From Escherichia phage EC100, in sequence record NC_105587.1: a stretch of 64,000 nt of DNA. One strand, written 5' to 3'. The translations under genes were made by a program, and so were the position numbers. This document shows, one piece after another, positions 2,750 through 60,794 of the stretch. The stretch's first letter is position 1, and each line of letters opens with the position of its first letter. The notes under the pieces were generated by a model, which was given only the letters and a program-made list of their open reading frames with translations, did no database searches and was not told the origin of the DNA.

Positions 2750-3282
2750 TAATAAGTAACCAATTCCTGTACAAATCGCAGGCTGTTATCACTGTTTGCG
2801 CCAACTGCATAGACTAATCGGGTGGATTCATAATTATAATCCAGTATCATACTATCTAGGTGTATATCTGCCTCTAGCTTCTGTTCGCTAAAGATTGTAG
2901 ATACAAAAGCACTTTCTATATGCCCATGTTGGTACATTTCTAGAAGAAGATTAGCTCCGCCTAGAACTACTGTTTGCTGATCTTTTAGAAAAGTAGGTAA
3001 TGTATCACCTATCATTGATATGGGAGTGTAAATATCATGTGTAATATCGTCTGGCAGTGGACGATCAGCACGAATAAATAGGTCAGAAGCTCCAATCATA
3101 CGTTCCCTAACGGCGTATGGAAGAGCTAAATAAGTACCTGCCCCAATAATAATATTATCAGGATTTAGTACATCTAATTGTGAATAAAAAGCATCTAGTT
3201 CTTCTTTAAAAGAACCCCAGGGAAGCTTACCTCGGAGGCCGAACTCCCCATTCGGCCCAACTGCATATATTGCTGTAATCAT
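2749..3282 (-). CDS. frd: dihydrofolate reductase
   Basis: 177 aa; DHFR-like N-terminus (IYAV...GxxGxLPW); sits between thyA and nrdB. Confidence 0.75.
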   Translation of the reverse strand: MITAIYAVGPNGEFGLRGKLPWGSFKEELDAFYSQLDVLNPDNIIIGAGTYLALPYAVRERMIGASDLFIRADRPLPDDITHDIYTPISMIGDTLPTFLKDQQTVVLGGANLLLEMYQHGHIESAFVSTIFSEQKLEADIHLDSMILDYNYESTRLVYAVGANSDNSLRFVQELVTY

Positions 3283-4424
3283 AGGAAATCTCCAAATTCA
3301 TTGCCCAGATCTTTCAGAGTATCAGTAGAGGTCTCAGTTACCTGACCTACACGGTAAGCTGCACCAATCTGGATTTCTTGTGGAGCAGGCTGTAGAGAAG
3401 TAGTATCCAACCAGTTCATGATCCACGGAATAGGGTTTTTGGTGATTACTGGTAAGTGACTAGGCCATTCTACACCAATGTGCATAAATGCGTTACGTCC
3501 CACAAAGTACAAGTATTCTTCTAGAAGTTCTGCATTCAAACCAATCAGACTACGACCTTTGAAGATGAAATGACCCCATTCAATTTCAGTTTTCAGAGTT
3601 TTCAGGAGCTGTGCTGGTGCTTTAGCCACTGCTTCATCTACCAGATCTTTGTCAAACTGCTGGAACATAATCTGGATGATTGTTTTAGACATCTGAGTAT
3701 GTAGGGCTTCATCTTTAGCAATCAACTGCAGATTTTTAGCAATACCTTGCAGAATATCGTTCTCTGCTAACGCAAAGGTACATGCAAAGGATGCGTAGAA
3801 CTGCATTGCTTCTAGACCGTAGATTGCAAAATAAGCGTCTAATAACTTAGCCTGAGTTTCACGTTTAACTTCAGGAAACTCTGTTTCTGGGTAAGTATTA
3901 TCACCACGATGATCGCGTACTGCGATGAAATACTGACCTAACTGGTACAATTCATCGAACAGTTCAACAGAATCAGCGATACGTGCGAATGCTTCTTGGT
4001 TTTTAGTTACAGAATCAATAAATTCTGCCGGATCAGTCAGCACATTACGGATAATATTGCTATACGCACGACTATGCAGGTCTTCAAAATAGCTCCACTG
4101 CTTGAGCATACCTTCCAATTCTGGACGGCTTACAAGCGGCATAATAGCTGCTTCAGGAGCACGACTGATAAAGGAATCTGTTTGAGTCTGCCATGCTAAG
4201 TTCAGGAGTGTGATTTCCTGGATTTCACGTGGGAGATTGGGCCATTGTTTCTTATCTGCTTCCAGACTGATTTCAGTTTCAGTCCAAAATTGAGAGCGTT
4301 GCAGAAGTGCCAGACGTTCTAGTTCTGGATGTGCTACACGTACATAATCTGCGATACCTAGAGAATCGCCCAGGAAAAGATCAGCGTTAGTATGATCCCA
4401 ATTCAGGTTTAGTAAAGTAGTCAT
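3279..4424 (-). CDS. nrdB: ribonucleotide reductase class Ia beta subunit
   Basis: 381 aa; ferritin-like di-iron RNR small-subunit pattern; GAGGA SD. Confidence 0.9.
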   Translation of the reverse strand: MTTLLNLNWDHTNADLFLGDSLGIADYVRVAHPELERLALLQRSQFWTETEISLEADKKQWPNLPREIQEITLLNLAWQTQTDSFISRAPEAAIMPLVSRPELEGMLKQWSYFEDLHSRAYSNIIRNVLTDPAEFIDSVTKNQEAFARIADSVELFDELYQLGQYFIAVRDHRGDNTYPETEFPEVKRETQAKLLDAYFAIYGLEAMQFYASFACTFALAENDILQGIAKNLQLIAKDEALHTQMSKTIIQIMFQQFDKDLVDEAVAKAPAQLLKTLKTEIEWGHFIFKGRSLIGLNAELLEEYLYFVGRNAFMHIGVEWPSHLPVITKNPIPWIMNWLDTTSLQPAPQEIQIGAAYRVGQVTETSTDTLKDLGNEFGDFL

Positions 4425-30090: not shown

Positions 30091-31068
30091 ATGAGAATAT
30101 TATTTAGTGCTGATCATCATATCAAACTAGGACAAGATAAAGTTCCAAAGGAATGGCAGAAGCGTCGCTTCCTGATGCTAGGAGAACGGTTAAATGATAT
30201 ATTCCATAATCATAACTGTGATCTTCATATTGCTGGTGGTGATATACTTGATGTTGCCGACCCGTCGTCAGAAGAAATAGAACTGCTTGAACAGTTCATG
30301 TCAAGACTCGACCATCCAGGCAAAATCTTTACTGGAAATCATGAAATGCTAACTAAAACCATTTCATGTCTATATCACTATGCAGGAGTTATTAATAAAG
30401 TAACTAGTGGGAAGTGGGAAGTAATTACCAAACCATATCGTTCTCCTGAATTTGATATTGTTCCATATGATGAGATCCATAAATCTAAGTGGAAATCTCC
30501 TGAATCAAAACTATGTTTCACACATGTTCGTGGTGAAATCCCTCCACATGTAAAACCAGAAATTGATCTAACTAAGTACAACTGTTATGATACTGTAATT
30601 GCTGGTGATTTACATTCTTATACTAATAGCCAGACTATCGGACCTACTAGACTTCTCTACCCAGGGTCTCCATTAACTACGTCGTTCCATAGAGAACGCA
30701 CAAAAGGTACAAATGGTTGCTTTATCGTTGATACCGACACATTAAAAGTAGAATGGATTGAACTAGGTGATTTACCTCAACTGATTCGTAAAACAATCGG
30801 AGTTGGTGAAGAGATGGAACCTAGTGATTATGATCGTGTAGTCTATGAAGTTACTGGTGACGTTGTTCAATTAAAGTCTATCAAAGACTCTGATTTATTA
30901 GATAAGAAGATTAACCATCGAGTTACTAAAGACGCTAAGTTAAATCTTGTTGATCTTGATATGTTAGGTGAACTTGAACTTTACTTCCGTGAAGTTGAGA
31001 AGCTATCTCAAGGCGACATTGATAGAATCTTGGCTAGAGCTGCGAAATATGTCAAAGATTACAATTAA
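30091..31068 (+). CDS. sbcD: SbcD/Mre11-like nuclease subunit
   Basis: 325 aa; calcineurin-like phosphoesterase motifs DHH, GGD, GNHE. Confidence 0.85.
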   Translation: MRILFSADHHIKLGQDKVPKEWQKRRFLMLGERLNDIFHNHNCDLHIAGGDILDVADPSSEEIELLEQFMSRLDHPGKIFTGNHEMLTKTISCLYHYAGVINKVTSGKWEVITKPYRSPEFDIVPYDEIHKSKWKSPESKLCFTHVRGEIPPHVKPEIDLTKYNCYDTVIAGDLHSYTNSQTIGPTRLLYPGSPLTTSFHRERTKGTNGCFIVDTDTLKVEWIELGDLPQLIRKTIGVGEEMEPSDYDRVVYEVTGDVVQLKSIKDSDLLDKKINHRVTKDAKLNLVDLDMLGELELYFREVEKLSQGDIDRILARAAKYVKDYN

Positions 31069-32887
31069 GACACTAAAATTTAGTAACGTTATGTCTTACG
31101 GTAAGGACATCGTAATCCATTTCGATAAGAATCCAGTTACTCAACTAATTGGTGGCAATGGGCTAGGGAAATCCACCATCGCTACGGTTATCGAGGAATT
31201 GTTTTATAACAAGAACTCACGGGGTATTAAGAAGGATGCTCTGTTCTCTTGGTCTTCCCCGAAAAAAGAGTATGATATGCACGCTTATTTCTCGAAAGAT
31301 GAAGATGAGTATGAACTGCATAAAGTAGTTAAGTCAACTGCTAAAGTAACTCTTATTAAGAATGGGGAAGATATTAGTGGGCACACGGCAACCCAAACAT
31401 ACAAGATGATTGAAGAGATTATGGGTGGTGACTTCCAAACATTCACCAAACTAATTTATCAATCAGTAGGTTCCAATCTAGACTTTCTAAAAGCAACAGA
31501 TGCAACACGTAAGGCTTTTCTTGTTAACTTGTTCAATCAAGAACAGTACAAAGAAATGTCAGAAACTATTAAGGCAGACCGTAAAGAAATAGCAAATACC
31601 TTAAATAATTTGCAGGGCCAAATGGCTGTAATTACGAAAATCCTTGATGGAAAGAATAATCTAGGAACTTTGCAGGAACCTGTAGAAGTACCAGAGTTTG
31701 ATGAAGAGCCATTAGCACAAGAACTTACTAAATCGAAAATTAAGGCGGCATTAGCCAAGTCTCAAGAGGCTAATATTACTAAATTGCGTAATTTGGACAA
31801 AGCTGTACAAGTTGCCGAACAATCTTTCGAGCCTTTCAAAAATTTACCCGCGCCCACTGACCAAAATGAAGAGATCTCGAGTGTTACGCGTGACCTAACG
31901 ATTGTGACCTCACGTGCGGGCGAAGTTAAGAAACGTTATCAGAAGTTCAAGCAAGAGGCTTCAAATACTGAATGTCCTACCTGTGGTACTCATCTGGATA
32001 CAACTGCTGCGCAAAAAGCAATGGATATGGCTAGAACAGAATATGATCCTCTGTTCAAAGAGAAGCAATCTCTTGAAGCTAAGCTAGAACAGTTGAAGAA
32101 AGAACAACTTGAGTACGTTGCATATACTAGAGCAAAAGATGCTTTGGATAAGGCAGTAGCAGCTAGAGACGAATTCAAGAATTCAATGAGTGATACTTCT
32201 TTTGAAGAACTCAATGTGCAAAACCTACAGGTGCAAATCCGACAACTAGAACAGGAAATCGCCGATGGCCGTTCTAAGGTTGCAATTGCCAAAGAGCATA
32301 ATGCAAATGTTGAATTAGCCAATGCAAAATATAAAGCGAAACTAGAACAGATTGAGAAAGCTGAGGCAGAAATGTCTGAGATTACTTCCAAACTGGATGG
32401 AGTATCAGAAGCTGTTGCTGATCTCGATATTCTGATCGCCGCATTGAAAAATCTGGTAGGGTATAAACTAGAGCATAGTGTGAAAGTATTTGAAGAGCTT
32501 ATCAATAAATATCTTTCTATTATGACTGGCGGTAAATTCGCACTTGGATTTGAACTTGATGAAACAAAATTACAAGTAGTAATCTTCAATGATGGAAACC
32601 GTACTAGTATGGAGAACTGCTCCACTGGTCAGCAAAGTCGAATCAATCTAGCAACCCTGTTAGCTATTCGGATGCTGTTAACATCTATTAGTAAAGTTAA
32701 TATTAATCTTCTATTCCTTGATGAAGTAATTAGCTTTATTGATACAAAAGGACTTGATACTCTCGTTGAACTATTAAATGAGGAAGAAAGTCTAAATTCT
32801 ATCATTGTTTCTCATGGGCATACGCATCCATTAGCCCATAAGATTACTGTTAAAAAAGATGCAGAAGGATTTTCCTACTTAGAATAA
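31049..32887 (+). CDS. sbcC: SbcC/Rad50-like ATPase subunit
   Basis: ATG 31049 (ORF-track start 30968 is upstream in-frame); Walker A GGNGLGKST, long coiled coil, ABC signature STGQQS and Walker B LLFLDE. Confidence 0.85.
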   Translation: MSKITIKTLKFSNVMSYGKDIVIHFDKNPVTQLIGGNGLGKSTIATVIEELFYNKNSRGIKKDALFSWSSPKKEYDMHAYFSKDEDEYELHKVVKSTAKVTLIKNGEDISGHTATQTYKMIEEIMGGDFQTFTKLIYQSVGSNLDFLKATDATRKAFLVNLFNQEQYKEMSETIKADRKEIANTLNNLQGQMAVITKILDGKNNLGTLQEPVEVPEFDEEPLAQELTKSKIKAALAKSQEANITKLRNLDKAVQVAEQSFEPFKNLPAPTDQNEEISSVTRDLTIVTSRAGEVKKRYQKFKQEASNTECPTCGTHLDTTAAQKAMDMARTEYDPLFKEKQSLEAKLEQLKKEQLEYVAYTRAKDALDKAVAARDEFKNSMSDTSFEELNVQNLQVQIRQLEQEIADGRSKVAIAKEHNANVELANAKYKAKLEQIEKAEAEMSEITSKLDGVSEAVADLDILIAALKNLVGYKLEHSVKVFEELINKYLSIMTGGKFALGFELDETKLQVVIFNDGNRTSMENCSTGQQSRINLATLLAIRMLLTSISKVNINLLFLDEVISFIDTKGLDTLVELLNEEESLNSIIVSHGHTHPLAHKITVKKDAEGFSYLE

Positions 32888-56023: not shown

Positions 56024-56509
56024 TTAGCCTCCAGGAACAGTAGGATTAACTGTTACAGCACATGCAGTAGAATCCTTACTTACTTGCTTACTATCTGTTA
56101 CAGTTACTTTATAAGAGCCGGCATCCTCAGCTGCTGCTGTAGGCTTAGTATAGGTAGCTCCTGAAGCATCCGGAATCGGAGAACCATCTTTAGTCCATGC
56201 ATAAGTATATGGACCAGTACCACCAGCTGCAGTAACAGAAAGTGTTAATGCTGCTCCCTCTTCAACGGACATGCTAGCAGTTAAATCTTTAGAAAGAGTT
56301 AATGGTGGAGCAGGAGGAACTGCTTTACCATAAGCCTCTACAAATTTCTTCCATACTTTACGGTTAGTATGCGCAGATGAAAGCCCTAGTTCTCTACGCA
56401 GAAAAGCATAGCTAGGAACATATTTATGCGCAGCAACCGTAGCAAAGAAGATATGAGATTCTGGCAGTTTTTCACCAAAAATGGTCTTTAGACCATTATA
56501 ATCAATCAT
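56024..56509 (-). CDS. capsid decoration protein with Ig-like domain (T5 pb10-like)
   Basis: 161 aa; C-terminal Ig-like segment LTLSVTAAGGTGPYTYAWTKDG...YKVTVTD. Confidence 0.5.
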   Translation of the reverse strand: MIDYNGLKTIFGEKLPESHIFFATVAAHKYVPSYAFLRRELGLSSAHTNRKVWKKFVEAYGKAVPPAPPLTLSKDLTASMSVEEGAALTLSVTAAGGTGPYTYAWTKDGSPIPDASGATYTKPTAAAEDAGSYKVTVTDSKQVSKDSTACAVTVNPTVPGG

Positions 56510-57723
56510 TCTTTATCTCCCTCGGTGGAACCCTGAGGTCTACCACCTTCTTGACCAGATACACCTGTTGCAGAACCAGCAACGTTAGCAGGAATACGAA
56601 TCCTATCCATCTGCTCATCATCTAAAGGTTCAAGGTTCAGCTCTAAACGAGCTTCGTTACCAGTCATAATACCATTATTAACCAATGAGGTTAAATGTTT
56701 AGCCTCAGCTTCTTTATCTGGTGTTAATGCAGCTACTTCCTTAGTATTAGGAGTAATCTTATAACCAAAAAAGAAAGTAAGAGAACTAGTCAGTTTGTTC
56801 AGCATAGGAATGATAGTCATATAATAGAACAATTCGATGTTTGGTCGAATATTCGCATTATTACCACCATCAAGCAGTACTTGCGGAACTCCAAAGGCTA
56901 GACAAATAGATTTATTAAATCCTTCGATGTCTTCCTTAAAGTCTAGATCTTTAAAAGAGGATATTTGGGAGTACGGTTTAGCTTTCATACCACCATCTAG
57001 AATCAGGACAGAGGACTGACCAGTACTAGGATTATAATCTAGTTGTAATTCTTCTTGTTTACGCTCACGCAATTTCTTGTTCAGGATTTCATCCGTCTCA
57101 AGAATAAGACCAATCACGGTTCCGTTATCGAGGAATTTCTCTTTAAAGTTAAGCATCTTAGAACGCTTCTCAAGAGAATCAATAACAGTAGCAACACGAG
57201 ATTGTCCAGAAATTTGAGAATTTGTGCCGCACACGTAACTGTTATCCTTTATAAAGATAATCTCATCTACGCGATAGTCTATCTGATTATTAAATATAAA
57301 TTTTTTGATAAACTTATTGGCATCTGCCTCTACTTGCATTAGTGCAGCAGGGACATGGTAAAGTGCTGTGCCATCCCAATAGATGTATGCACAACCTTCA
57401 AAAAGTAGGTCAGTGACTACAAGTCTACGGAATGTGCTTATATCCATGAATGGATTAGGTCGTACATTTAAGAGAGTGTCTAGAGTCTTTGTCTTGATGC
57501 CATTAGCATACGTGACAATATTATATTTATCTCCGACAGTATAAGAACACTCCGCCGCACTATCTATAACCATATTAGCAGTTCTATTGAGAATCTCAAT
57601 TTTACTGTAGGCTTGTCCAGTGGTAAAAGGCTTACGGTTAGTGCGATGACTAACTGGTTCCATGTCTCTTATAATACGTTGACCCGGATTTAGCTTTTCA
57701 GTAATCCAGCTTTTAAAACCCAT
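56506..57723 (-). CDS. portal protein
   Basis: 405 aa, position between terminase/HE genes and the protease; acidic C-terminal region. Confidence 0.75.
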   Translation of the reverse strand: MGFKSWITEKLNPGQRIIRDMEPVSHRTNRKPFTTGQAYSKIEILNRTANMVIDSAAECSYTVGDKYNIVTYANGIKTKTLDTLLNVRPNPFMDISTFRRLVVTDLLFEGCAYIYWDGTALYHVPAALMQVEADANKFIKKFIFNNQIDYRVDEIIFIKDNSYVCGTNSQISGQSRVATVIDSLEKRSKMLNFKEKFLDNGTVIGLILETDEILNKKLRERKQEELQLDYNPSTGQSSVLILDGGMKAKPYSQISSFKDLDFKEDIEGFNKSICLAFGVPQVLLDGGNNANIRPNIELFYYMTIIPMLNKLTSSLTFFFGYKITPNTKEVAALTPDKEAEAKHLTSLVNNGIMTGNEARLELNLEPLDDEQMDRIRIPANVAGSATGVSGQEGGRPQGSTEGDKE

Positions 57724-58175
57724 TATAAGAACCTTGCGAATCCTGATTTTGTTTCAGTCTTGACTTGTGTCTTTTCTTGAGGATTCTGTAATTTGTCTTT
57801 CTGCTTTTGAACCCACACTTTTTGCTTATTAGCAGAAAATAAAGGAGGTTCTTTTGTGTAAACCTTATGTAATAATTGGTGATGGTGCTGGCACAATGTT
57901 ACCACGTCCCTAACTAACTCATGCTCATATTTCTTGTAGAATGCTTCCCTATTTGAAAGGACGATATTCTCATCAGTGAAATCCAGCTGGAGTTCTTTAG
58001 CAAATTTTTTTATTAGCTGAGATATAGTATGATAATGATGAAGTTCTAGGTCTTCACTACTACCACATATAGCACAGCAACCATCCTTACTATACCTAGA
58101 TTTTATACCATCCCTCATTATGGAAATGGCATCACGTTTGTACTTAGTATTAGTGGCCATAATCCTCCAATCCAA
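57723..58175 (-). CDS. HNH homing endonuclease
   Basis: 150 aa; HNH motif CAICGSSEDLELHHY...N...LCQHHHQLLH. Confidence 0.65.
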   Translation of the reverse strand: MDWRIMATNTKYKRDAISIMRDGIKSRYSKDGCCAICGSSEDLELHHYHTISQLIKKFAKELQLDFTDENIVLSNREAFYKKYEHELVRDVVTLCQHHHQLLHKVYTKEPPLFSANKQKVWVQKQKDKLQNPQEKTQVKTETKSGFARFL

Positions 58176-58824
58176 AGCTACTTAGAAAGATTACTATATC
58201 CTCAGGAGCAACATTAAAAAATTCCGTGCTTCCTGTAAAATTAGAAAACCCACAGTTTTTATTATAATATTCTCTGTGAACTTCCTTTTCTAAATCTAAA
58301 GCAGTCTCTCTATCTGGCAGATGATACATGGTGAACAAGTATAGGTCAGAAAATCCAGATTCTCTTTTAACTTCATTCAACCGTTTCTCAGGGTATAAGC
58401 TTATGCCTACTTTAGTACCGCTAGAGGAGGACATGATATAAAGGAATCCACCATTCTCCCACTTAAGAGAACAATAAGGGCATCTCTTACCTTGAGTCAA
58501 TCCATCTAAGGTAATGAAACAGTCATGCCCATTATTGCAGCGTAGATGTAGTTTTGTTTTAGCATTAGTATAGCTGCTTAACAGAGTATACCCTATATTA
58601 GATATTCTGTTACTAACTTCATCTAACGATATTGTATTATTGGAGCAGTGTGGACAACCTCTCCCCATATGGAGTATAGAATGTGGTGTTGCTTCCCAAA
58701 CGTGTGCTCTCTGGCATTTAAATACTGTTTTTGTACGTTGGTTTACATATTCACCGACAATTTGGATTCCACGATCAGCTAATCTAATATTTATATCTTT
58801 TATTGTTAGCTTTTGTCGACCCAT
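58150..58824 (-). CDS. GIY-YIG-like (T5orf172-type) endonuclease with two zinc ribbons
   Basis: 224 aa; two C...H...GxGCPxC zinc-ribbon repeats, then GGFLYIM...KVGIS...RLNE module; AGGAG SD. Confidence 0.5.
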   Translation of the reverse strand: MGRQKLTIKDINIRLADRGIQIVGEYVNQRTKTVFKCQRAHVWEATPHSILHMGRGCPHCSNNTISLDEVSNRISNIGYTLLSSYTNAKTKLHLRCNNGHDCFITLDGLTQGKRCPYCSLKWENGGFLYIMSSSSGTKVGISLYPEKRLNEVKRESGFSDLYLFTMYHLPDRETALDLEKEVHREYYNKNCGFSNFTGSTEFFNVAPEDIVIFLSSFGLEDYGH

Positions 58825-58954
58825 AGAATCTCCTACACCTCATGTAGAGCATTAATTTTTCTTGTTTACGTTCTATTATGGGAGAAGTTCTCCCGATCAA
58901 TGAATATAGTATACATAATCGTATCGAATTTGTAAAGGGGATTTTAAAATGCAG

Positions 58955-58985
58955 GAATGGGATACCAACTGAGTAGTATCCCATC
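58955..58985 (-). terminator. putative terminator after the terminase large subunit
   Basis: ATGGGATAC / GTATCCCAT stem followed by a T-rich tract on the minus strand. Confidence 0.4.
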
Positions 58986-58995
58986 CTATATTTAT

Positions 58996-60312
58996 TTATT
59001 TACCACGGGAAATAGAGTAAATTCCATAGCGCAGCGCATCACAGAGGTGAGAGTTAGCATCATGACGTGGTTTTTCACGTGATAATTTTTCTTCACCTTC
59101 TTGGAAGTCCCATTTATAGTTCTGCAACGCATGGATTAATGAGGAACATGAAGCATCTACAATAATCTTGCCCTGCTGGAATAGCGCTTGCAAGCATGCT
59201 AGACCGTCTAGGACAGATTTTTTAGCTGGAGCTGATGCAATTTCATGTTCATAAGCTAAGTCCTGACGGAACTGAGCTGCGGCAGAGTCAACAAAAATAC
59301 GATCAACTTTATAACGATCTATACAGTGCTGAATATAAGCAGCATGCTGAGCTGTGGTCTTCTCCGCCTGCTGGTACTCTTCTAATACATAGTAAGTATC
59401 CGTATCGTAATGATACTTGATAGTAAGAACTGCTGTAGGATCACGATAACCAACGTCAATGCCAAGCAATGTTTCGAATGCTTCATCATCTTTAAAGAAG
59501 TGACGCATACCTTTGAGATCTTTAACATGGTCGATGGCATTAAAGGTATCGAAGATCTGACCTTCGAATACAGAGAAGTCAGCCTCGTATTCTTGTCGGA
59601 AGTAGTTTTTACTAACAGTACGACGTGCTTCTTCGATGTCATTAAGGTCAGCACGTGGGTTATCACGATATGTACCATGAATAGATACCCAGTTAGGTAA
59701 TGTATCATCAAATCCATAGGCGTAAAACTCTTTAAACCAGTTACCCCCACGAGGAGTAGAGATAAATAGAGCCTTAGAATTAGGCTTATCTAGAGTAGGA
59801 CGCAACTGAACTCTAAAGGCATCACCACCCACATCAGAAATTGCCGCCTCATCGAAGATGATAAAATCATATGAACGTCCAACTGCGGAGTCAGCCTGAG
59901 CGGCAGAAGCTAGTTTAAATAGAGAACCATTAGCTAACTCAATCTCTTTATCTTTAGCGTTCTCACGTTCGGTCTGTAGGCCATACTTCTTAATAAGACC
60001 ACGAATCTGAGACCATCCGATGTTGGCCAGTGAGTAGTTAGGAGCAACTACTAACACTTTCACATTAGGTTCCAACAATTTTAGGAATCCAAGTGTATAT
60101 GCTATAAAGGATTTGCCTACACGGCGTGACACACACGCCGTTACAAAACGATGTCTAGGGTCCTCTAAAGCATTAATGATTGCTATTTGAGGACCATTAG
60201 GTGTAATACCTTCTTGTGCTAGTATTCCTGAAACAGGTAAACGAAAGAAACGTTTATCTATCCCGAAATCAATAACATCTACTGTGTTAACGTAGGGTCT
60301 TGATACTTCCAT
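58996..60312 (-). CDS. terminase large subunit
   Basis: 438 aa; Walker A-like RRVGKS, Walker B-like DFIIFDEAA, C-terminal nuclease domain acidic residues. Confidence 0.85.
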   Translation of the reverse strand: MEVSRPYVNTVDVIDFGIDKRFFRLPVSGILAQEGITPNGPQIAIINALEDPRHRFVTACVSRRVGKSFIAYTLGFLKLLEPNVKVLVVAPNYSLANIGWSQIRGLIKKYGLQTERENAKDKEIELANGSLFKLASAAQADSAVGRSYDFIIFDEAAISDVGGDAFRVQLRPTLDKPNSKALFISTPRGGNWFKEFYAYGFDDTLPNWVSIHGTYRDNPRADLNDIEEARRTVSKNYFRQEYEADFSVFEGQIFDTFNAIDHVKDLKGMRHFFKDDEAFETLLGIDVGYRDPTAVLTIKYHYDTDTYYVLEEYQQAEKTTAQHAAYIQHCIDRYKVDRIFVDSAAAQFRQDLAYEHEIASAPAKKSVLDGLACLQALFQQGKIIVDASCSSLIHALQNYKWDFQEGEEKLSREKPRHDANSHLCDALRYGIYSISRGK

Positions 60313-60794
60313 TACTTCTTACCTCCAGTAGCTAGGGAAGTAATTAGGTCCATGTAGTTTTGATCCCCAGCTCCAGCAATAATATTATTCTGGATATTGG
60401 TCTGGTTAGCTGGAGTACGGGCTGCTGCCTTCACTTTCTCCAATTCTACCATCATTTTCATTTCTTCCATCTTCATCTTGTGTGCCTTCCAGAGAATGTC
60501 CATAATATCCTGGTCAGAACCCATGCCAGTTTCTTCTAGCTCTTCTAGCTTACGCTTAATAACTTCATCTAGAACACCAAATAAACGATCTCTATTACGG
60601 AATCCACTCTCCATAAAAATATCATTTAAGTAGTTTTTAACTTCGCTACGATTCATAATATCTCGGAAAGCAATTTCAGACATTCCAAGACTACGTGCGG
60701 CAGAAGGCACATCACTCCCGCACTGTAAATAAGCTTCAATTACATCCATCCCTTCAGGGGACATAAGATCTGGTACTAATACATCATTTGCCAT
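60312..60794 (-). CDS. putative terminase small subunit
   Basis: 160 aa, immediately upstream and overlapping the large subunit; HTH-like [12 protein letters not shown]. Confidence 0.5.

Follow-up and report, generated by a model that had tools for sequence, protein, structure and literature searches.

Escherichia phage EC100 (NC_105587.1), of which a stretch of 64,000 nucleotides (nt) was analyzed here (hereafter, the window), is a T5-like coliphage of the family Demerecviridae as judged from its nearest relatives, and a megablast comparison of the region between positions 57000 and 60400 gave 100% identity with Escherichia phage EC105 and 96% with phage T5. The analysis concerns the packaging genes of this region and, in particular, two small open reading frames (ORFs) that separate the gene for the terminase large subunit TerL from that for the portal protein. 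All genes from TerS to the portal are located on the minus strand, in the order TerS, TerL, an ORF of 224 amino acids (aa), an ORF of 150 aa, and the portal (Table 1). The initial annotation described both small ORFs as homing endonuclease genes, flanked by hairpins and inserted between two genes that are usually adjacent. The ORFs themselves, their coordinates and strand, and the overlaps of their starts and stops were reproduced: the end of the 224-aa ORF and the beginning of the following gene, sciA, have 11 nt in common, and sciA in turn overlaps the portal gene by 1 nt.

Table 1. Features of the terminase-portal locus of Escherichia phage EC100 (positions in the window).
Feature	Position	Strand	Description
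TerS	60312-60794	minus	
TerL, terminase large subunit	58996-60312	minus	Pfam Terminase_6N (9.4e-15) and Terminase_6C (2.9e-11); annotated as TerL in T5 and relatives
Terminator-like hairpin	58955-58986	minus	adjoins the TerL stop; stem of 13 pairs, then a T-run
Promoter-like site	58908-58936	minus	TTTACA-17-TATACT; 10/12 consensus matches
Inserted segment	58162-58899	minus	putative endonuclease gene with its leader; 738 bp in place of 17 bp
Palindrome GGGAGAAcTTCTCCC	58880-58894		7+1+7 (15 nt); in the leader of the putative endonuclease gene, just inside the upstream insertion edge
224-aa ORF, putative homing endonuclease gene (equivalent of T5.154)	58150-58824	minus	two treble-clef zinc ribbons (DUF4379, CapR type) and a C-terminal T5orf172/GIY-YIG domain
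sciA, nicking endonuclease (equivalent of T5.153, 145 aa)	57723-58160	minus	packaging-module core gene
Diverged sciA stretch	57888-58157	minus	codons 2-91, 270 bp; linked to the putative endonuclease gene
Portal protein	56506-57723	minus	Pfam Phage_portal (1.6e-50)

The shorter ORF measures 150 aa (57723-58175) when it is read from a TTG codon. Translation almost certainly begins instead at the ATG at 58160, which gives a protein of 145 aa (MATNTKYK...), because this codon is preceded by GGAGGA and because the same start is found in T5 (T5.153), in the records of the BASEL phages, and in the crystallized protein; thus, the ORF was correctly placed initially, but its length was overstated. A profile derived from 35 homologs of the 145-aa protein matches PDB entries 9QGV/9QGX ("Nicking endonuclease") with an E-value of 5e-69, and the structural model of the protein superposes on 9QGV in Foldseek (TM 0.98), with 97-98% identity to the crystallized T5 protein. 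The titles of both entries refer to the SciA(H42Q/H42A) endonuclease of Escherichia phage T5 complexed with 10 bp DNA (GCGC). Public annotations of the gene vary from "hypothetical protein" (T5.153 in the T5 reference genome) to "nicking endonuclease" (the BASEL phage collection), and in the GenBank record of DT571/2 it is named sciA and described as "nicking site-specific endonuclease". By these profile and structural matches, the 145-aa product is identified as SciA, the site-specific nicking endonuclease of T5.

Eight cysteine and histidine residues (C29, C32, H41, H42, C90, H93, H94, and H98) are present in the window protein and invariant in the 35 homologs, and the resulting pattern CxxC...HH...CxxH...H is preserved throughout the SciA family, which is consistent with a zinc-stabilized HNH-like site. 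Profile support for the HNH motif that had been assigned to this protein is weak: besides the invariant pattern, the sole HNH profile signal is a match to PHROG 8048 (1.9e-7), whereas Pfam and NCBIfam yielded no match at E<=0.1. When the SciA fold was compared with those of other HNH enzymes, no match was significant. All SciA homologs (P0001-P0074) are listed with a precomputed Pfam family, PF26848, and a dedicated family thus seems to exist.

The genes responsible for the single-chain interruptions of T5 DNA, sciA and sciB, were previously mapped to the late region, the consensus of the major nicks was given as R/GCGCRGG, and viable T5 mutants without nicks were obtained (PMC3517423). In the literature library searched, there was no paper on the SciA structures 9QGV/9QGX and none that joins "SciA" with "HNH". 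The sequence RGCGCRGG occurs twice on the minus strand of the window (positions 31854 and 44261) and is absent from the plus strand; with approximately 0.9 sites per strand expected by chance, the minus-strand count is not significant, and the sites are too few for a test of strand bias. Additional copies of SciA and of the 224-aa protein were sought in the window by tblastn, which returned chance matches only, including one inside an unrelated 639-aa ORF (30968-32887) that was dismissed as an extra copy.

The distribution of sciA coincides with that of TerL. In tblastn searches, sciA was found as a single copy in 898 phage records, compared with 906 records containing a T5-type TerL; the respective numbers per host genus are 356/356 for Vibrio, 267/271 for Salmonella, 128/128 for Escherichia, 81/81 for Klebsiella, and 10/10 for Proteus, and homologs from Vibrio phages are detected at 50% identity. 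The gene is located between TerL and the portal in T5, DaisyDussoix, Stitch, DT571/2, TrudiRoth, Sugarland, KpGranit, Vibrio AG74, and Proteus phage 2, so that the order TerL-sciA-portal is represented in the genera Tequintavirus, Epseptimavirus, Sugarlandvirus, Novosibvirus, and Vibrio Thalassavirus (AG74). The stop codon of sciA and the ATG of the portal gene share 1 nt (TAATG), and relatives that carry nothing else between TerL and sciA have the same overlap. On this distribution, sciA is a single-copy core gene of the Demerecviridae that is co-distributed with TerL, and the sporadic presence characteristic of free-standing homing endonuclease genes is not seen for the 145-aa ORF. Found in nearly as many records as TerL, in one copy and at one position, it is not a homing endonuclease gene; of the two ORFs, it alone combines an unchanged position in the relatives with a conserved non-homing function. 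The ancestral gene order, as read from these genomes, is TerL-sciA-portal, a family trait of T5-like phages, and therefore the initial premise that TerL and the portal are usually adjacent does not apply to the Demerecviridae.

The 224-aa ORF differs from sciA in domain composition. All its Pfam matches exceed the curated cut-offs (DUF4379, 33.6 bits; CapR, 38.6; T5orf172, 34.4; and MUG113, 35.9), with the DUF4379 ribbon at residues 29-62 and the CapR ribbon at residues 78-119, and the nuclease domain has a predicted GIY-YIG fold, in agreement with the zinc ribbon and T5orf172 domain recognized initially. The two C..H..CxxC repeats and the catalytic-type residues are invariant among homologs. 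A sequence-based comparison with solved structures yielded only chance matches to ankyrin repeats. The equivalent gene T5.154 is annotated as "endonuclease" in the T5 reference genome, and its BASEL orthologs as "putative homing endonuclease". The RefSeq version of T5.154 (positions 3151-3984 of the T5 locus) has 277 aa, the additional 53 N-terminal residues spanning the hairpin and the promoter-like site that are also found in phages without this gene; in the window, a 1-nt difference frameshifts the corresponding extension and leaves a separate 66-aa ORF (58784-58984, minus strand). Because the extension crosses these shared elements and is frameshifted here, the protein made is likely to be the 224-aa version, and the 277-aa form and its "transmembrane domain" note look like an annotation artefact. 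In its domains and distribution, the gene conforms to what is expected of free-standing homing endonuclease genes of the T5orf172 class (GIY-YIG superfamily).

Eight loci were compared in detail, and the boundaries of the insertion follow from alignments with relatives that lack it. In a BLASTN alignment with DaisyDussoix, homology ends at position 58900 of the window and resumes at 58161 (DaisyDussoix 1895 and 1913, respectively). The 17 bp that the insertion replaces contain the sciA ribosome-binding site in DaisyDussoix and Stitch, whereas in the window a new sciA ribosome-binding site is supplied by the 3' end of the endonuclease gene. TerL, the terminator-like hairpin, and the promoter-like site of both relatives are collinear with the window up to 58900, and the insertion is absent at exactly this junction from DaisyDussoix, Stitch, KpGranit, and Vibrio AG74.

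Of the hairpins said to flank the insertion, one survives this comparison. The large hairpin behind TerL is identical in sequence in DaisyDussoix and Stitch, both of which lack the endonuclease gene, and nothing comparable was found in a hairpin search at the sciA or portal side of the insertion. The promoter-like site is likewise kept in 5/5 phages of the alignment, and Sugarland and KpGranit have a similar one in common. In relatives without the insertion this site precedes sciA, and in the window it precedes the endonuclease gene; its function as a promoter is proposed from its match to the consensus. The hairpin behind TerL and the 1-nt overlap of sciA with the portal gene are thus, by their presence in these relatives, ancestral features rather than marks of insertion. 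Among the hairpin, the promoter-like site, and the palindrome, only the palindrome GGGAGAAcTTCTCCC is specific to the insertion; it is conserved in every copy examined (EC105, T5, TrudiRoth, and the decayed copy of DT571/2) and might be a protein-binding site. For the 91-nt leader of the endonuclease gene, the predicted RNA fold did not exceed that of shuffled sequence in stability (z = -0.81), and for this reason no regulatory hairpin is claimed there. In Proteus phage 2 (MT679222, Novosibvirus; locus positions 835-2886), the slot between TerL and sciA is filled by a hypothetical protein of 683 aa that has no Pfam match, so that the genes inserted at this place seem to vary from lineage to lineage.

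The presence of the endonuclease gene is patchy. Among 469 phage records carrying TerL-portal DNA, found by megablast with region 57000-60400, 86 contain endonuclease gene DNA, either full length (72 records) or partial (~14 records); about 80% of the close relatives have no copy, and in 64 records the gene is conserved at 98-100%. Partial or decayed copies include those of DT57C and Gostya9, and in DT571/2 the start codon has changed from ATG to ACG and an internal deletion has occurred. Carriers and non-carriers are found within the same genus: T5 and EC105 versus DaisyDussoix in Tequintavirus, TrudiRoth versus Stitch in Epseptimavirus, and Sugarland, whose copy has the same domains at 53% identity, versus KpGranit in Sugarlandvirus. 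The distant family members Vibrio AG74 and Erwinia phage Key lack the gene. Comparison of the terminase-portal junction among relatives, which had been suggested initially, thus separates the two ORFs: the 224-aa gene comes and goes, whereas sciA keeps its position in all the loci compared.

The insertion is accompanied by a one-sided divergence of the flanking DNA. Identity to DaisyDussoix is 97-100% on the TerL side right up to the insertion, whereas beyond the insertion the first 300 nt of sciA match at 63-83%, after which identity is back at 100%. The 51 sciA codons that differ from DaisyDussoix (30 synonymous and 21 non-synonymous differences) all fall within codons 2-91, and none within codons 92-145. 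The T5-type version of this stretch was found by megablast in 81 records, essentially the same set as the 86 records with the endonuclease gene or its remnant. Pairwise TerL identity is 92-94% within a genus and about 85% between genera, and TerL sequences accordingly group by genus. Codons 1-91 of sciA group instead by the presence of the endonuclease gene, in conflict with TerL: identity among carriers is 94-99.6%, also across genera (TrudiRoth), and that between the two non-carriers is 90.5%, but carriers share only 70-72% with non-carriers. The endonuclease gene and the 5' part of sciA form a cassette with 89-95% identity between genera, compared with ~85% for the TerL genes of the same genera. 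The same one-sided diverged flank is observed in the independent pair Sugarland/KpGranit.

From this linkage, we infer that the endonuclease gene moves horizontally together with a presumably cleavage-immune piece of sciA, and its homing site would therefore lie in the 5' two-thirds of sciA. Within codons 31-45 (about 58026-58070), the endonuclease-linked alleles of T5-type phages and of Klebsiella phage Sugarland share ATA, GGTAGT, GAACTT, and TATCAT, and these shared bases differ from all three alleles without the endonuclease gene; the cluster is suggestive, does not define a site, and offers a weak lead that these codons may mark the homing or immunity site.

The observed gene identities, insertion boundaries, patchy distribution, decayed copies, mosaic flank, and conflict with TerL relationships are very probably explained by a locus composed of one conserved gene, the sciA nickase, and one mobile homing endonuclease gene. 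The initial proposal of selfish invasion by two elements is accordingly supported for the 224-aa gene, with its 738-bp insertion, its absence or decay in relatives, and its mobile flank, and fails for sciA, leaving one selfish element. In the proposed scheme, sciA is an ancestral member of a TerS-TerL-sciA-portal cluster, translationally coupled to the portal gene. Its product would be a small HNH-like protein that binds zinc and introduces, at sites containing GCGC, the site-specific single-strand interruptions typical of packaged T5 DNA, nicking one strand of the progeny DNA around the time of packaging, a timing and role that are taken from the literature. The endonuclease gene would be transcribed from the promoter-like site that presumably served sciA before the insertion, and the two N-terminal zinc ribbons of its product would bind DNA. 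In a mixed infection, the 224-aa enzyme would cut the allele without the insertion, most likely in the 5' two-thirds of sciA, and repair from the carrier genome would copy the endonuclease gene along with the diverged, cleavage-resistant sciA codons 2-91. After fixation in a lineage, the endonuclease gene would decay, as suggested by DT571/2, DT57C, and Gostya9.

A bolder version of this scheme would place the homing site in the active-site codons of sciA (~31-45), so that each homing event exchanges the catalytic and DNA-recognition two-thirds of SciA for an allele differing at 21 residues, and a selfish element would spread SciA variants between genera. We regard this version as a long shot; if true, the exchange of SciA by homing would possibly alter nick-site preference or the nick pattern among T5-like phages.

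Several points weigh against the combination of a core nickase gene with a mobile neighbor. The record counts given above take in duplicate GenBank/RefSeq entries and fragments, the biochemistry of SciA is drawn here from PDB entry titles and GenBank annotations, and cleavage and homing by the 224-aa protein are predictions. Moreover, the proposed target in sciA is placed by the mosaic boundary, and the diverged flank could have arisen through ordinary recombination with a distant donor instead of break-induced co-conversion.

Four other explanations were considered. SciA could act mainly as an HNH accessory of the terminase that aids concatemer cutting at the genome ends, as in the case of HK97 gp74, the nicks being a by-product. 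The position of sciA between TerL and the portal, its co-distribution with TerL, and its translational coupling to the portal gene fit such a role, and HNH proteins are known in phage packaging machines (Kala et al., 2014, cited in PMC10448857). However, the viable nick-less T5 mutants (PMC3517423) argue against an essential packaging role, and the DNA in the solved complexes contains GCGC, which matches the nick consensus and not a terminal sequence. We therefore consider it unlikely that this is the main function of SciA, although such a function would be compatible with, and not opposed to, the preferred explanation of a core nickase gene beside a mobile element.

Domestication of the 224-aa protein, which would have lost its homing role or never have had one, either as a DNA-binding regulator of the sciA-portal operon (similar to CapR) or as a nuclease acting on rival phages or on satellites (similar to ICP1 Odn), appears slightly less probable still. 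T5orf172 and CapR domains have been co-opted for repression and satellite conflict (PMC10448857), the gene directly follows the promoter-like site and has a conserved palindrome in its leader, and its near identity in 64 records could reflect a retained function. On the other hand, its catalytic-type residues are intact and invariant, the gene is dispensable, being missing from most close relatives and present as a decayed copy in some 14 records, and it travels with a flank that contradicts the TerL relationships. Sporadic presence, a linked flank, and decay together form the pattern expected of a homing endonuclease gene.

There is little to recommend repeated deletion of an ancestral endonuclease gene, in place of invasion, as the source of the patchy distribution. 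Decayed copies demonstrate that loss does happen, but where the gene is missing, the junctions of Tequintavirus and Epseptimavirus are clean, resemble each other, and retain an intact sciA ribosome-binding site, the cassette is more similar between genera (89-95%) than TerL (85%), and neither Vibrio AG74 nor Erwinia phage Key, both distant, has the gene. Finally, the invasion of a formerly adjacent terminase-portal junction by two homing endonuclease genes, for which one could cite the nuclease-type motifs of both proteins, the overlapping of the genes between packaging genes, and the several HNH homing endonucleases reported elsewhere in the T5 genome (PMC4319617), is highly improbable given the single copy and constant position of sciA in 898 of about 906 records with a T5-type TerL, the match of the 145-aa protein to crystallized T5 SciA, and the retention of sciA, still overlapping the portal gene, in relatives without the insertion.

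Both gene assignments can already be found in annotations and in the literature. What this analysis adds, on a small scale, is that the endonuclease gene is linked to a diverged 5' allele of sciA, which is typical of free-standing homing endonucleases. The result corrects a plausible misreading, in that small nuclease genes in packaging modules are not all selfish. Two clearly distinct SciA alleles exist in nature, the presence of the endonuclease gene predicts which of them a phage carries, and this two-allele linkage may serve studies of T5 nicks or phage engineering. Outside the TerL-sciA interval, the head-decoration gene downstream of the portal (56024-56509) is a second local divergence hotspot, with identity to Stitch falling to 55-70% around 56060-56410 and a longer version of the gene in DT571/2.

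Among known systems, T5 itself provides the closest counterparts of both genes. T5 SciA (T5.153 / T5p149 / ORF142; PDB 9QGV and 9QGX) shares with the window protein its length, its position between TerL and the portal, His42, and the Cys/His zinc ligands, and differs from it at two amino acid positions, 115 and 124, neither of which is material. T5.154 and its BASEL orthologs are found at the site of the 224-aa ORF and overlap sciA, stop to start, in the same way, the T5 copy being 98% identical at the amino acid level. HK97 gp74-type HNH proteins (Kala et al., 2014), compared by description, resemble SciA as small HNH-like proteins encoded beside the terminase and portal genes, whereas SciA is a sequence-specific nickase of GCGC sites whose nick-less mutants are reported to be viable.

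For the 224-aa protein, the nearest described parallel is found in ICP1-like vibriophages, where T5orf172 homing endonucleases were reported whose zinc fingers are of the CapR, DUF723, or DUF4379 type (Barth et al., 2023; PMC10448857). These enzymes have the same nuclease domain and repeated N-terminal zinc fingers of the CapR/DUF4379 type, and their genes, like the window gene, lie at the edge of a region exchanged between related phages. Unlike them, the window gene belongs to a different phage family, is known here from sequence, and has as its travelling flank a part of a nuclease gene, sciA. The free-standing homing endonucleases of T-even phages (Seg family; I-TevI catalytic domain), again compared by description, are GIY-YIG enzymes as well, but I-TevI has a helix-turn-helix and a linker where the 224-aa protein has zinc ribbons.

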